Shown piece by piece: positions 1-3,614 of a stretch of DNA of 59,966 nucleotides. Origin of the DNA: Minisyncoccota bacterium (GTDB taxonomy: Bacteria; Patescibacteriota; Minisyncoccia; Phycocordibacterales; CAIRYW01). The translations under genes were made by a program, and so were the position numbers. Every line of letters starts with the position of its first letter. Position 1 is the stretch's first letter. Location: positions 1-59,966 of the forward strand of contig JBAYHV010000001.1 of the NCBI GenBank assembly GCA_041665985.1, in the 5' to 3' direction. The notes beneath the pieces are model-generated. The model made no database searches. It saw only the letters and a list, made by a program, of their open reading frames with translations, and was not told where the DNA came from.

Positions 1-169
1 ACGTACTGCTAACGCACGTAATCTTGGGATCTTTTCATTTGTTGTATATGCCATGTTCATACTTTACATCAGGGAGGTGATGCAAAGGTATTGAACCATT
101 ACGCCCGGTTGACTTTTTTATAATTTTGTTTAATATTTAAAAAAAGAGTTCGTTGATAACGAATACGAA

Positions 170-534
170 CCAAAATCCAATTTCGGCAAGACCAGCAGGG
201 ACACCTCAATCGCCGCATAGCTACCTCGGTTGAGGATGGTAATTAACGGTTACGCGTTGGTTATCTAGCCAATTGCGACCGGAGGGGTTTCTCCGGTCGC
301 TCCAATTTCGGAGAATTAAGCTGTGAAGCCTGTAGCAGTAACAGCTCTTCGAAACGTGTTGCTGATTAGTGGCGAGCGAAAGGCAACACTTATAATCGAC
401 AAATGGTCGTCGATTAGCGGTTGGGACGGGACCACCCTAATCCCAACCGCGCGAATTTCCGCAGTTTCCCCCAAGTGAGAGGTAGCTCAACTTCTTCAGA
501 TTTGATCTGAGGTTGAGCTACCTAAGTTTTTTTT
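170..534 (+). ncRNA. Candidate structured non-coding RNA: seven consecutive hairpins ending in a strong terminator. Identity unknown.
   Basis: No ORF >=60 aa. Stems at 204-235, 275-300 (10 bp gcgaccggag/ctccggtcgc), 319-346, 356-389, 395-414, 419-448 and 480-523. Locally GC-richer than the coding DNA. Confidence 0.3.
480..534 (+). terminator. Rho-independent terminator-like hairpin plus T8
   Basis: aggtagctcaac (480-491) pairs with gttgagctacct (512-523). Inner tcaga/tctga stem. T8 at 527-534. Confidence 0.6.
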
Positions 535-557
535 GATTTCGGCGAGCAGCCAACCAT

Positions 558-585
558 AGCACCTGGGTGCTGAGCTCTGTTTTTG
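558..585 (+). terminator. Short hairpin followed by a T-rich tract
   Basis: agcac/gtgct stem at 558-571, then gagctctgtttttgtcttttt. Confidence 0.35.
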
Positions 586-664
586 TCTTTTTATTGTAAG
601 AGTTTGACAGAAACATCTTGGCACCTAGGTAGGTGGTTCATATTTTCGTTATAAAAAAAATACG

Positions 665-707
665 GAGCGGAATAATCAATGTTAGATTGTTCCGCTCTTT
701 TGCTTTT
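665..707 (+). terminator. Terminator-like hairpin
   Basis: gagcgga (665-671) pairs with tccgctc (691-697), followed by ttttgctttt. Confidence 0.5.
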
Positions 708-716
708 AAAAAATAG

Positions 717-745
717 TTGACAGATTTAAATATAGTTGTTACATT
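717..745 (+). promoter_or_regulatory. Sigma70-like promoter candidate
   Basis: TTGACA (717-722), 17-nt spacer, TACATT (740-745). It lies in an ORF-free region upstream of a 31-codon ORF and a GC-rich structured stretch. Confidence 0.35.
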
Positions 746-1026
746 AATAAATGAAGCGAAGAACATTTAAACTTTGGATTTCACGACAGTAACAACGGTC
801 AATAGACCCTTGAAATTCAGGCGAATATTAATTCGTTTCAAATATGAAAACACGCAAAAACACCACCGTTGAATTGAGCAAAACTCTTCCCACTCCCGCC
901 GGCGGCATTGTCGCCTTCTACATCGGCCACGACCACTGACGCCATGACGCCCTCAAAAGGTCTACCGCTCGGTCTGGCCCGAGTATGGAGACAAAAGCAC
1001 CAATAATAAGCAGTTTAGGTATAACA

Positions 1027-1075
1027 GACGATCACAGGCACTTGGTGCATGCCTGTGATCGTCACCTTTCATTTT
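1027..1075 (+). terminator. Long perfect hairpin followed by a T-rich tract
   Basis: gacgatcacaggca (1027-1040) pairs with tgcctgtgatcgtc (1050-1063), then acctttcattttt. Confidence 0.45.
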
Positions 1076-1090
1076 TGAAGTTTTTTTCAA

Positions 1091-1116
1091 GGCCGAACAG
1101 ATCAGTTCGGCTTTTA
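1091..1116 (+). terminator. Terminator-like hairpin
   Basis: gccgaac (1092-1098) pairs with gttcggc (1105-1111), followed by tttt. Confidence 0.5.
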
Positions 1117-1130
1117 CATTGCCCAAAATT

Positions 1131-1153
1131 ACTTAGGGGTGAAACCCCTAAGT
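1131..1153. other. Perfect 9-bp hairpin flanked by an A-run
   Basis: acttagggg (1131-1139) pairs with cccctaagt (1145-1153), followed by an A-rich tract. It could terminate minus-strand transcription. Confidence 0.4.
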
Positions 1154-1178
1154 AAAAAAAAGAAAAAAAATTGCGCTA

Positions 1179-1187
1179 TGTTATAAT
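1179..1187 (+). promoter_or_regulatory. Extended -10 element (TGtTATAAT) 6 nt upstream of the dnaX ATG, implying a leaderless mRNA
   Basis: TATAAT at 1182-1187 and ATG at 1194. No Shine-Dalgarno sequence is possible in 6 nt. Confidence 0.4.
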
Positions 1188-1193
1188 CTTTTC

Positions 1194-2225
1194 ATGACAA
1201 CACACGAAACACTCTATCGAAAATATCGACCACAAAAATTTAGCGAAGTGATCAATCAAGATGATGTTGTTTCGTTGCTTACAAATTCAATTTCTGAGGA
1301 AAGAATTTCTCATGCATATATTTTTGCAGGATCTCGCGGAACTGGAAAAACTTCTGTTGCAAGAATCTTAGCTAGGGAATTAGGAACAACTGATGATGAC
1401 CTATATGAAATTGATGCTGCTTCAAACAGAGGAATTGATGACATAAGAGCCCTAAGAGAAACAATTGAGACCCTTCCTTTTTCATCACCAAAAAAAGTTT
1501 ATTTAATTGATGAGGCTCACATGCTTACTCGTGAAGCTTGGAACGCCCTTTTGAAAACTTTAGAAGAACCTCCAAAGCATGTTATTTTTATTTTAGCGAC
1601 AACTGAGTTGGAAAAAATTCCAGAAACAATTCAATCACGTTGTCAGGTCTGTGAATTCAAAAAACCAACAAGAGCAATTCTTTCAAAAGTAATTAGTAAA
1701 ATTGCAAAAAAAGAAGGATTTGAAATTGAAGAGGAATCCTCCGATCTTATTTCACTTATGGCAAATGGTTCTTTTAGAGATGCAATAGGAGGACTTCAAA
1801 AAACGATCAGTTCAGTAACAAACAAAATAATTAAGCTCATTGATACAGAAAAATCTTTAGGTGCTCCAAAAGAAGCCTTGATCGAAAAATTTATTGTTTC
1901 AGTAGGAAAGAAGGAAACGGATAATGCACTTAAAGCACTTCACGAAGCAAAAGATAATGATATGAATATGGAACTTTTTGGAAAACTTACACTCGAAAAA
2001 ATTCGAGACATAGTTTTAATAAAATTTTCACCAACCCATGAGCAAAATCTAACTCACCGTTACTCAGAGGAAAGAATTAAATTTATAAAAGAATGTGCTG
2101 GTTCAAAAGAAATGCAGTGGAATGGGGAAGTTCTCAGAAAACTTCTTTTGTCAGTGATGGAATCTGAAAGATCCTTTATTCCTGAACTTTCTCTAGAATT
2201 GTTTGCTATTGGACTTTCTAGCTAA
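1194..2225 (+). CDS. dnaX: DNA polymerase III gamma/tau subunit (short form)
   Basis: YRPQKFSEV..., Walker A GSRGTGKTS, DEAHML Walker B, SRCQ sensor motif. Typical clamp-loader N-terminal AAA+ module. Confidence 0.9.
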   Translation: MTTHETLYRKYRPQKFSEVINQDDVVSLLTNSISEERISHAYIFAGSRGTGKTSVARILARELGTTDDDLYEIDAASNRGIDDIRALRETIETLPFSSPKKVYLIDEAHMLTREAWNALLKTLEEPPKHVIFILATTELEKIPETIQSRCQVCEFKKPTRAILSKVISKIAKKEGFEIEEESSDLISLMANGSFRDAIGGLQKTISSVTNKIIKLIDTEKSLGAPKEALIEKFIVSVGKKETDNALKALHEAKDNDMNMELFGKLTLEKIRDIVLIKFSPTHEQNLTHRYSEERIKFIKECAGSKEMQWNGEVLRKLLLSVMESERSFIPELSLELFAIGLSS

Positions 2226-2341
2226 AATTTTGATTTTTTTGCAAAAAAAAGCTAAAGTATTGAGGCTTTAGTTTTGGTTTTTGTTCGTATGTTTTAAGTG
2301 CCCTTTACTTTATGAACTTTTTACTTTAAACTAATTTACAT

Positions 2342-2412
2342 TACGGGATCGTCTAATGGTAGGACGACGGCTTTTGGAGCCGTCTATCTAGGTTCGAGTC
2401 CTAGTCCCGTAG
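2342..2412 (+). tRNA. tRNA-Gln (anticodon UUG)
   Basis: Hand-folded cloverleaf. Acceptor tacggga/tcccgta (U1-A72), D stem gtct/ggac, anticodon stem acggc/gccgt with loop ttTTGga, T arm ctagg-ttcgagt-cctag. No encoded CCA. Confidence 0.92.
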
Positions 2413-2524
2413 CAAATGAGTGTAGCGAATTTGCTACGGGAAGTGAGTGATGTTATCACTCACGTCTAGGACTCGAAGAGGTTGAGTTTATCGCACGGAG
2501 CAAAGCGAGTACGATACGAAACCT

Positions 2525-2562
2525 GTACCGTCCATGTAATGGAAGAGACTCCTAGTCCCGTA
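2525..2562 (+). repeat. 38-nt perfect direct repeat, copy 1 (gtaccgtccatgtaatggaagagactcctagtcccgta)
   Basis: Identical to 2828-2865. It ends with the last 13 nt of tRNA-Gln. Confidence 0.9.
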
Positions 2563-2827
2563 GCAAAAGAAAGTGCTAGGTAGCACTTTCGACTAGGACG
2601 AGAACAGCGGAGCTATAATTTTTCGGAAGAAAAATTAGCGAGCTGGTGCCTAGACTAAAATTTGCGATAGGCAAATTTTAAGTCGAAGGAGAGATTCCTA
2701 GTCCCGTAGCAAAAATTTACCGTAGGAAAATTTTTCTACGGGAAGAAAGCCCTGGGAGAGCTTTCGCCTAAGGCTCGAAAACCTTTTGAGTCTAAAATTG
2801 ATTTTAAGAAAATTTTAGCCAAAAGGT

Positions 2828-2865
2828 GTACCGTCCATGTAATGGAAGAGACTCCTAGTCCCGTA
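2828..2865 (+). repeat. 38-nt perfect direct repeat, copy 2
   Basis: Identical to 2525-2562. Confidence 0.9.
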
Positions 2866-3054
2866 ATTTATTACAAATAAATTTTTAAACTATTTACTTA
2901 AAATTAAATAATAGTAGTATTGAAAACAGCTTTTCGGCTCAACTTGCGGGTTAAAAACCCAAAGAACGAGGTGTCGACGCCACGCCTACAATGTTCATAC
3001 GAACAAGAGAGTTGACGGTGTAGTTATTTAAACAATAGATCGAAAATTTCTGAT

Positions 3055-3087
3055 AACGTTAACTAAAAAAAAGTTAACGTATTTTTT
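3055..3087. terminator. Hairpin aacgttaac/gttaacgt with an A/T-run loop and flank; possible bidirectional terminator
   Basis: Stem at 3055-3063 / 3073-3080, then atttttt. It lies at the 3' end of the minus-strand ORF 3093-3614. Confidence 0.4.
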
Positions 3088-3092
3088 AAAAT

Positions 3093-3614
3093 CTATTTAA
3101 GGATAAAACCTTTTTCATCCACAGCAACAATGTAATCATCCGAATAGTTTTTATCTACATCCACGCTATCATCGCTAAAAGATTTTTCAACAAAATAGAT
3201 TTTTTGTCCTGGGATAATTTTGAATGATTGTGTTTGGTCGCTTTGTGTTTTAGAGGTCAGACTAATTTCTATTACATCATTATTTTCTGATTTAGTTACG
3301 ACAAAATTAAATCCAGCAAGTGCTTTTTTTGCACTTGCATTTGCTGTTGGGTAGATTAAGTACGCTTTGTCATAATCAGGTGATTCTGCAAAAAGTTGAT
3401 CAGTACTTTGCATTATCGAAGTACTTGTCGAAGTAGGTTTTGTTGATGTTGCTTGTGTAGGGATTGTTTCAATTTTATCACTTGCTATTTTGATATCTGG
3501 AGAATCGGGTAAACTTGAAATTGATGAACTTCCTTGGTATTTAAAAATTAAAAATGCTCCTCCGGAAATGATCAATATAAGCGCAAAAATAATTATTTTA
3601 TATCTTGGGTTCAT
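3093..3614 (-). CDS. Hypothetical membrane-anchored protein (N-terminal TM helix, Ser/Thr-rich linker, C-terminal globular domain)
   Basis: The 173-aa ORF has a hydrophobic N-terminus (IIIFALILIISGGAFLIF) followed by a TSTKPTSTSTS linker. No recognisable family. Confidence 0.65.
   Translation of the reverse strand: MNPRYKIIIFALILIISGGAFLIFKYQGSSSISSLPDSPDIKIASDKIETIPTQATSTKPTSTSTSIMQSTDQLFAESPDYDKAYLIYPTANASAKKALAGFNFVVTKSENNDVIEISLTSKTQSDQTQSFKIIPGQKIYFVEKSFSDDSVDVDKNYSDDYIVAVDEKGFILK

Follow-up and report, generated by a model that had tools for sequence, protein, structure and literature searches.

What occupies the 1.2 kb in front of dnaX in a 701-kb genome? The window, which denotes here the whole analysed stretch of 59,966 nucleotides from a patescibacterial genome of 34% GC, opens with 1,193 nucleotides in which, as the initial annotation had stated, no open reading frame of 60 or more amino acids is found (the longest has 56) and which make up the second-longest ORF-free stretch of the assembly. 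With an overall GC content of 0.42 they are the richest among the long ORF-free stretches, the others lying between 0.25 and 0.40, and the GC-rich block described before is clearly visible at 851–1000, where values reach 0.58–0.60. Three explanations had been put forward for this region, namely large or novel structured RNAs, decayed copies of tRNA-linked modules and a small-peptide locus; of these, the last is the best supported by our analysis, known large RNAs received no support, and decayed modules are represented by a short signature only. Rather than one large RNA, the 1.2 kb in front of dnaX is a composite, consisting of the end of an insertion sequence (IS) at 1–103 and of the dus–dnaX spacer at 104–1193 (Table 1).

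The view of positions 1–1193 as wholly intergenic fails at the left edge, since the first 103 bases belong to an IS with its transposase start on the minus strand. These bases are 100% identical to C3:39067–39169, where a full copy of the element specifies a protein of 289 aa that carries rve, rve_3 and HTH domains; the rve core, the terminal inverted repeats and the presence of multiple copies together identify a DDE (rve) element. By inspection the inverted repeats read GTCAACACCTTTGCATCAC and GTTCAATACCTTTGCATCAC, the repeat ends with ...GGTATTGAACCATTACG at position 103, and CATTACG terminates all five ends found for this IS family, which represent two subfamilies. The dus gene of this genome adjoins the other copy, on C3, in the same orientation. 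The element appears to have landed 5 nt upstream of the −35 box of promoter P1, and the contig breaks at the IS. At the opposite edge, the ATG of dnaX is located at 1194, 6 nt downstream of the TGtTATAAT motif, and because the start codon lies so close behind the predicted −10 element, dnaX is probably leaderless. Neither the IS end nor the REP-like repeat and the two-unit layout of the spacer had been reported in the initial annotation.

Table 1. Features of the ORF-free stretch upstream of dnaX, in window coordinates
Feature	Positions	Strand	Basis or remark
IS end, IS of about 945 bp	1–103	-	N-terminus of an rve-type transposase encoded 57->1; contig starts inside the IS
Promoter P1, TTGACT-16-TAATAT	109–137	+	Consensus scan; 5 nt past the IS end
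Unit 1, predicted transcript (about 390 nt, ORF-less, about 50% GC, nine serial hairpins)	145–534	+	Fold
Predicted intrinsic terminator T1	480–534	+	Stem of about 19 pairs with bulges (arms of 15 nt, 93% complementary), then T8
Long imperfect hairpin with T-rich loop insert	552–638	+	Fold
Predicted intrinsic terminator T2	664–707	+	14-pair stem, then TTTTGCTTTT; terminator scan and fold
Promoter P2, TTGACA-17-TACATT, extended −10 TG	717–745	+	Aligns with the promoter just past dus in same-genus G003
Structured leader of unit 2, about 90 nt	752–843	+	Element order as in G003
31-codon sORF MKTRKNTTVELSKTLPTPAGGIVAFYIGHDH	844–939	+	Codon-position bias; slot position in family
CAAAAGGTCTACCG, tRNA-linked module signature	954–967	+	Then hairpin 968–984; partner arm 803–811
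Perfect 14-bp hairpin	1027–1063	+	Repeat/hairpin scan
Predicted intrinsic terminator T3	1089–1118	+	GCCGAAC..GTTCGGC, then TTTT
REP-like palindrome TTACTTAGGGGTGAAACCCCTAAGTAA	1129–1155	.	At least 11 genomic copies of (a)acTTAGGGGnnnnnCCCCTAAgt
Predicted dnaX promoter (TGtTATAAT at 1179–1187)	1171–1196	+	Read from sequence

The dus-to-dnaX gene order is kept in at least 14 of the 27 relatives, with spacers of 0–900 nt, and the spacer studied here can be matched to two of them as two separate units. Unit 1 maps to the sister species G001 (109–184 and 486–647; local alignments scoring 67 and 66, with a null maximum of 46; nhmmer E 0.026), and the unit 2 region maps to the sister species G003 (699–956 and 1049–1137; scores 53 and 38 against a null maximum of 37; nhmmer E 3e-4). 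Within unit 1, P1 shares 87% identity over 38 nt with the sequence right after the dus stop codon in G001, a member of the same genus, and in a BLAST comparison nothing else of the G001 spacer aligned with this stretch. The alignment scores come from two stretches, 75 nt at the 5' end and the region of the terminator, and the middle 300 nt have no counterpart in G001. The predicted transcript folds at −150.3 kcal/mol (z −6.5), with hairpins such as those at 275–300, 393–416 and 417–450; it contains no ORF, matches no Rfam family and showed no consistent frame in codon-phase scans. Unit 1, extending from P1 to T1, may therefore be described, at the level of prediction, as an ORF-less, hairpin-rich RNA that is kin to the single unit of G001, and it is possible that it represents a novel RNA. 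With unit 1 lacking an ORF, the two units may differ in function.

Unit 2 begins at P2, which had been singled out before as a good promoter and which turned out to be the best promoter-like match in the scanned positions 1–3200 (10/12, with TG). The leader that follows shares with G003 the order of its elements, that is, an outer stem, a small GGTC/GACC hairpin, a second hairpin and ATGAAAA, and the motif GAAC(A/T)TTTA(A/T)AACT is common to unit 2, G003 and G008. The 31-codon ORF noted downstream of the promoter is indeed present. Its GC content by codon position is 0.47/0.47/0.66 with the stop codon and 0.48/0.45/0.68 without it, and C makes up 0.61–0.67 of third positions vs. 0.23–0.33 of the others, in a genome with a mean GC3 of about 0.25 and a GC3 of 0.20 in dnaX. 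No other intergenic ORF in the genome combines GC-richness at every codon position with a C3 above 0.6. Such three-base periodicity and codon bias, marks of coding sequence, are likewise displayed by the ORFs of 12 other family genomes; phase bias alone, over 31 codons, is modest evidence of coding. It is the third-position C of 61%, taken together with orphan GC3-rich ORFs at the same place in those 12 genomes, that argues best for the small-peptide locus. Blastp among the slot ORFs and Pfam searches revealed neither amino-acid conservation nor homologues of the sORF, and the one nucleotide block conserved between this genome (G000) and G003 is located, by inspection, within the ORF in G000 and past a double stop codon in G003. 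Composed of P2, the leader, the sORF, the perfect 14-bp hairpin and T3, unit 2 would be the local form of a promoter–leader–orphan-ORF unit of the family, which, if translated, most likely yields a short fast-evolving peptide, or else would be the recently shortened remnant of such a gene.

A slot with promoter, leader and orphan "MK..." ORF was found in 13 of the 18 family genomes, with GC3 values of 0.68–0.85 vs. about 0.25 as the genome mean, and in none of nine genomes from other families in the order. These GC3-rich ORFs span 25–170 codons, and three of them encode signal peptides. The promoters are the best-conserved parts of the slot (87% for G000 vs. G001); when G012 and G014 are compared, the first 85 nt are 92% identical and the ORF bodies barely align. 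The slot ORFs diverge faster than their flanks, which does not fit ordinary purifying selection. At the protein level they could not be aligned in all-vs-all blastp, and a blastx search with the region as query and every ORF of the relatives' spacers as target returned Dus only, so that the frameshifted pseudogene for which the initial annotation had allowed did not emerge from the translated search. Pfam gave no match for six slot ORFs, and for the 168-aa slot ORF of G002 a word-index plus full HMMER search through 1.84 billion representative proteins yielded no real homologue. Searches with the region by BLAST and nhmmer, covering 40 relatives, every dnaX-upstream locus and a phage collection, recovered only the two genus-level partial matches, and among the metagenome and genome contigs scanned with DnaX as the anchor no relative exceeded 91% DnaX identity.

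Cumulatively, these comparisons suggest that the dus–dnaX spacer of this family may serve as an expanded, fast-turnover slot for small, self-contained accessory transcription units, and that this genome would carry two of them in tandem. With guarded confidence, we favour the interpretation that the stretch is an IS end joined to a two-unit accessory slot, in which unit 2 specifies a peptide or is the remnant of a peptide gene and the terminators insulate dnaX. Since the genomes of ultra-small CPR bacteria contain hardly any spare DNA, neutrality is improbable for a kilobase that is not housekeeping sequence and stays at a fixed slot across a family, its promoters conserved and its GC-rich content changing. 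Should the mini-genes be expressed, they would be candidate peptides or RNAs specific to the lineage and used in host interaction, and the slot would be a natural site to study gene birth or turnover in minimal genomes.

The hairpins to which attention had been drawn are all present, at 275–300 (10 bp), 480–523 (followed by T8), 1027–1063 (14 bp) and 1129–1155 (12 bp). Minimum free energy folding produced about nine hairpins in 145–534 and about six in 752–1120, and perfect hairpins of at least 8 bp occur at a density of 4.6 per kb vs. 1.0 per kb genome-wide. Folding z-scores for the two regions were −6.5 and −4.4 on the plus strand and −6.2 and −4.0, that is, nearly equal, on the minus strand; because both strands fold equally well, the stems are Watson–Crick palindromes that carry no strand signal. 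In T1, T2 and T3 a GC-rich stem-loop is followed by a T-run on the transcribed strand, as defined for Rho-independent terminators. T1 is homologous to a G001 hairpin followed by T7, with G(A/T)TTTCGGC coming next in both species, and T3 lies collinear to the final terminator ahead of dnaX in both G001 and G003. The long imperfect hairpin behind T1 aligns with a 66-nt hairpin of G001 and shows, by inspection, one compensatory stem change from T:A to C:G. The recurrence of the aatttcgg motif held in a modified form: the exact 8-mer AATTTCGG (179, 304) occurs at chance level, with 6 copies in the window vs. 3.5 expected, and a looser pattern is enriched, in that 7 of the 29 hairpins in 12 spacers, vs. 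about 1 expected, have A(A/T)TTT(T)C no more than 14 nt behind them on the plus strand. This pattern was encountered once on the mirror strand. Hairpins with A(A/T)TTT(T)C or a T-run behind them form a polar arrangement, restricted to the plus strand. With the exception of the REP-like one, none of the hairpins recurs elsewhere in the genome or among 40 relatives. The hairpins and U-rich tracts may act as serial intrinsic terminators or as 3'-end protectors, and the serial terminators would then shield the leaderless dnaX promoter from upstream transcription.

The hairpin closest to dnaX is a copy of the REP-like repeat of this genome, 11 copies of which match TTAGGGG-N3-7-CCCCTAA with at most one mismatch per arm. 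Copies of the palindrome bracket two Y1_Tnp genes (IS200/RAYT-like) at C40:503–766 and C10:23965–24228, whose products match Pfam Y1_Tnp and may be of RAYT or IS200 type. Short, GC-rich palindromes present in at least 11 nearly identical copies, with copies flanking Y1_Tnp genes, are reminiscent of REP/REPIN elements and their RAYTs, but this hairpin is the only one that fits, the others being single-copy. The similarity to tRNA-linked modules of Patescibacteria proposed for 950–1000 stood up in part. The 14-nt signature CAAAAGGTNTACYG has three matches in 60 kb vs. 0.01 expected, the other two being known modules; here it is followed by a hairpin and has a complementary arm upstream, a 9-nt stretch pairing with 956–964, and the 5' arm is degenerate. 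In contrast to the modules, in which 35–45 nt separate the arms, about 142 nt do so at this site, which is not beside a tRNA; no tRNA was found in 1–1193, and the repeats include no copy, inverted or direct, of the end of a neighbouring gene. Model R1, a covariance model of the module trained on 10 of the 11 copies detected in the genome and having the core ACCTTTTGAG - hairpin - CCAAAAGGTGTAC - hairpin, scored three tRNA-Gln modules at E-values of 7e-22, 3e-8 and 0.011 and detected nothing in 104–1193. The signature and its partner arm suggest a single broken or expanded module.

In Bacillota the SRP RNA gene (ffs/scr) is located upstream of dnaX, and the region resembles it in being GC-rich, in having its own predicted promoter and terminator and in its position directly upstream of dnaX, which is not a defining trait. 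This analogy, along with the failure to detect SRP RNA and RNase P RNA elsewhere in the assembly, is what speaks for a housekeeping RNA in disguise (SRP RNA, RNase P RNA, 6S RNA or tmRNA), an explanation that is close to refuted and to which we assign practically no probability. No Rfam family matched in 1–1300, at the gathering threshold or at E ≤ 10, which also removes the known structured RNAs from the earlier list of candidates. SRP RNA, whether as RF00169, RF01854 or a match to a hand-written domain IV pattern (nothing convincing), was not recovered here, and it was not found in the genome or in 30 relatives; moreover, the sequence is unconserved even inside the genus. The partner proteins were also not found: the Ffh M domain PF02978 (SRP_SPB) had 0 matches in this genome, in 31 relatives and in 81 genomes of the phylum, the SRP54 GTPase domain PF00448 had none over the cut-off here or in the 31 relatives, TIGR00064 (FtsY) gave no match, and no ORF of at least 150 aa contains a DTAGR motif. 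Synteny is no ground for annotating the region as SRP RNA, with the SRP system as a whole not found in the lineage. Models for RNase P RNA, 6S RNA and tmRNA had no match at E ≤ 10 in the stretch. The tmRNA is on C11, and since same-genus relatives possess an RNase P RNA (79–98 bits) that lies far from dnaX, the lack of one here probably reflects a gap in the assembly. We also consider it unlikely that the region encodes a novel structured small RNA acting in trans, or two of them, with the folds as the product and the 31-codon frame incidental. The strong folds and GC-richness in a 34% GC genome, the units' own promoters and terminators, the lack of an ORF in unit 1 and the C-rich unpaired tracts UUUCCCCC and CUUCCCACUCCC that precede hairpins both here and in relatives are consistent with such RNAs, but neither sequence nor length is kept between species whose DnaX proteins are 89–91% identical, most stems are perfect palindromes with equal folding on both strands, and a structural RNA would not be expected to show the three-base periodicity seen in the sORF region; the homologues are too few for a covariation test.

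Alternatively, the spacer could be non-functional debris, left by mobile hairpins (tRNA-linked modules, REP-like repeats, MITEs) and by rearrangements beside the IS. The IS end and the REP-like copy, the module signature with its partner arm, the variation of slot length from 0 to 900 nt and the several small repeat families of this genome all point in this direction. We regard it as rather improbable in view of the single-copy status of all but the REP-like hairpin, the silence of the module model, the conservation of promoters while the bodies drift, and the GC-richness with GC3 bias across at least six genera, where junk in a 34% GC genome should drift to AT. Far less probable still is a type I toxin–antitoxin-like nature of unit 2, with the start codon of a toxic peptide hidden by long-range 5'–3' pairing. 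The 13 nt at 1067–1079, past the perfect 14-bp hairpin, are 92% complementary to the start-codon region (837–849), which would suit such a locus, as would the strong promoter, the long structured leader, the tiny ORF and the tandem, hypervariable units; the peptide, however, is mostly polar and has no hydrophobic stretch of transmembrane length, no antisense (minus-strand) promoter was found in 1–1193, and neither the GC3-rich codon usage nor the secreted versions of 160–170 aa in relatives fit.

The accessory slot that we favour has its closest parallel in 'moron'-like accretion cassettes and sORF transcripts, with which it shares a sigma-70-type promoter of its own, a tiny ORF and a terminator between two housekeeping genes, the unit being present, absent or different in close relatives. 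It differs from them in that no prophage is involved and the dus–dnaX slot is fixed family-wide, promoter and leader persist as the body changes, the GC3 bias of the ORF is foreign to the genome, and one of the two units has no ORF. More speculatively, and with a low probability in our estimation, the slot might be a dedicated cassette site, where unrelated, GC3-biased orphan micro-genes of 25–170 codons, some of them secreted, are continually replaced or born behind a conserved promoter and leader; two allelic cassette types would be stacked in this genome, and the GC bias would reflect a recombination hot spot (GC-biased conversion) or the repeated capture of foreign, possibly host-derived, DNA.

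The stretch was also considered as oriC and rejected: only two DnaA boxes, with 2 mismatches, are present in 1–1300, and box clusters are located on C19 and C34. Perfect DnaA boxes, which do not accompany the slot promoter in this genome, adjoin it in five relatives.

The window comprises bases 1-59,966 of contig C1 in a 701-kb assembly of 40 contigs (94% complete, 34% GC), and the nearest relatives of the genome are MAGs labelled Parcubacteria, Paceibacterota or "Saccharibacteria", which places it in the Patescibacteria (CPR). As the initial annotation had stated, an ORF scan of positions 1-1193, directly before dnaX, detected none with at least 60 aa; this is the second longest ORF-free stretch of the assembly and the one with the highest GC among the long ones. 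The hairpins, the promoter at 717-745 (P2), the GC-rich block and the 31-codon reading frame (sORF) described there were each found again; the count of the exact motif AATTTCGG, taken to be recurrent, is not above chance.

Positions 1-103 are identical to C3:39067-39169, the end of an IS copy of ~945 bp on contig C3 whose 289-aa transposase has rve, rve_3 and HTH domains, and are thus an IS end themselves. Since the transposase start codon falls at position 57 on the minus strand and is read into the contig start, the lack of an ORF at 1-103 is an artefact of the contig break. The stretch from 104 to 1193 is the dus-dnaX spacer: dus is the gene immediately before dnaX, in the same orientation, in at least 14 of 27 relatives, the spacers measuring ~0 to ~900 nt. 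In the genome under study dus is found on C3, followed by ~250 nt and then by the other IS copy in matching orientation, and the likely order is dus-IS-P1-...-dnaX, where P1 is the promoter at 109-137. P1 is native and not IS-borne: the same-genus sister species G001 has a counterpart of P1 (87% over 38 nt) directly after the dus stop codon, with no IS there. A literature search, aimed at SRP, found no description of this slot between dus and dnaX.

Each of the five ends of this rve-type IS family terminates in CATTACG. Beyond it come 5-6 variable bases and then TTGAC(A/T), which in four of the five belongs to a full sigma-70-like promoter directed outwards from the IS; the IS apparently inserts immediately 5' of -35 boxes. 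A repeat of ~100 nt (…GAGAGATGTCGCGAAAGACGA…TTTCATGACATCCGA…GACGGAACAAA…), probably a MITE-like family, is present at no fewer than three sites in the genome.

Within the spacer, local alignment and nhmmer, for which only two homologues of the region, genus-level and partial, were available, matched separate parts to separate sister species. Positions 109-184 and 486-647 correspond to the single 370-nt spacer of G001, the common parts being the promoter and 5' end, a terminator hairpin with its T-run, G(A/T)TTTCGGC and a long hairpin. Positions 699-956 and 1049-1137 correspond to the second sister species, G003, which shares the promoter, the leader and ATGAAAA... and, further on, the final hairpins preceding dnaX. 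The spacer can thus be described as two tandem units, whose function we infer solely from their anatomy. The middle 300 nt of unit 1 hold about seven unique hairpins, with neither a G001 counterpart nor an ORF.

Features of the region before dnaX and related sites elsewhere (T1-T3, predicted intrinsic terminators)
Feature	Position	Strand	Remarks
Unit 1	P1 to T1 (480-534, T8)	+	~390 nt, predicted transcript
Long hairpin	552-638		between unit 1 and unit 2
Terminator T2	664-707		between unit 1 and unit 2
Unit 2	P2, ~90-nt leader, sORF 844-939, perfect 14-bp hairpin 1027-1063, T3	+
Elements 3' of unit 2			REP-like hairpin, then leaderless dnaX promoter (TGtTATAAT, 6 nt, ATG)
IS family ends	window 98-114; C3:39060-39070; C3:~100; C12:~100; C4:~35550
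~100-nt repeat sites	~250 nt between dus and IS in locus L002 (C3:37567-40669); C23:~9388; C20:~8052
REP-like palindrome sites	C40:466-1017; C10:23711-24508; window 1129-1155; at least 6 others
DnaA-box genomes (loci)	G002 (L033), G010 (L053), G011 (L045), G013 (L040), G015 (L042)

The sORF of unit 2 has GC of 0.47, 0.47 and 0.66 at the three codon positions, with C at 61% of third positions, compared with a third-position GC (GC3) of 0.20 in dnaX and an average of 0.25 in ORFs of at least 100 aa. An ORF beginning ATG AAA occupies the same position of the slot in 13 of 18 family genomes, including this one; nine genomes from other families of the order showed none. These ORFs have GC3 of 0.68-0.85. 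Ahead of them, immediately following dus, stands a promoter of the form TTGACA-17-TAnnAT, and between promoter and ORF runs a 100-150-nt leader that includes a CA-rich tract. Ten of the ORFs span 25-59 codons; the other three have 162-170 codons and carry signal peptides. At the protein level the ORFs cannot be aligned with one another, Pfam gives no match, and the 168-aa version proved an orphan when searched among 1.84 billion representatives. For one pair of congeneric species, identity is 92% in the promoter region, and the ORF body barely aligns. While the three-base periodicity argues for coding, present or recent, an ordinary gene is made less likely by the absence of conservation at the protein level, and we read unit 2 as a putative fast-evolving micro-gene or the shortened remnant of such a gene.

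Folding was compared with shuffled sequences, giving z-scores of -6.5 for 145-534 and -4.4 for 752-1120, and the reverse complements also fold well (-6.2 and -4.0, respectively). Because both strands fold better than shuffles, the stems are Watson-Crick palindromes and folding is uninformative on strand. Among 29 perfect hairpins from 12 spacers, seven have A(A/T)TTT(T)C within 14 nt on the 3' side on the plus strand (~1 expected; one on the mirror strand), and T-runs come after many other spacer hairpins. Such a strand bias is consistent with hairpins that resemble terminators or protect 3' ends on putative transcripts running towards dnaX.

Known structured RNAs are excluded. The Rfam check returned no family match, even at E≤10. 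The tmRNA is located on C11, and RNase P RNA (RF00010) is present, far from dnaX, in 27 of 30 relatives, the three same-genus ones among them; it was not found in this assembly, probably owing to an assembly gap. Assigning SRP RNA by synteny is not tenable, since the models RF00169 and RF01854 match none of 31 genomes (this one and 30 relatives) and searches for the SRP proteins came up empty. An Ffh M domain was seen in none of 31 relatives and in none of 81 sampled Patescibacteria genomes (completeness 90% or higher), and an SRP54-type GTPase domain (Ffh/FtsY) in none of 31 genomes; in the genome under study FtsY was not found and no ORF contains DTAGR, while all 14 control genomes gave matches. 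Either the lineage as a whole has truly lost the SRP system, or the first-look filter is blind to it.

Decayed copies of the hairpin modules found behind tRNAs were also suggested initially. The signature CAAAAGGTNTACYG is present at 954-967, its only other matches in 60 kb being the two known modules (0.01 expected), and has a partner arm at 803-811, so that the pair encloses the sORF start. However, a covariance model of the module core, for which 10 of the eleven genomic copies were used and which finds the three modules behind tRNA-Gln at 2434-2855 (E 7e-22, 3e-8 and 0.011), has no match in 104-1193. The pair may represent a single module, broken or expanded, and does not account for the region. 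An origin of replication is unlikely, with no DnaA-box cluster in the region, as is a type I toxin-antitoxin locus, because the sORF peptide is polar and an antisense promoter was not found; no phage similarity was detected.

In five family genomes, this one not among them, a perfect DnaA box (TGTGGATAA) lies directly 5' of the slot promoter after dus, suggesting possible control of that promoter by DnaA in those relatives. The hairpin at 1129-1155 is one of at least 11 near-identical palindromes, (a)acTTAGGGGnnnnnCCCCTAAgt, in the genome under study, and copies lie on both sides of two of its four Y1_Tnp genes, which by sequence is a REP/RAYT-like arrangement in a CPR genome. Three other GC-rich ORFs have GC3 of 0.56-0.64 (C4:24684-25313, C12:182-631 and C32:1487-2197, the last encoding a 236-aa membrane-anchored orphan) and resemble genes that are foreign or carry a special bias.
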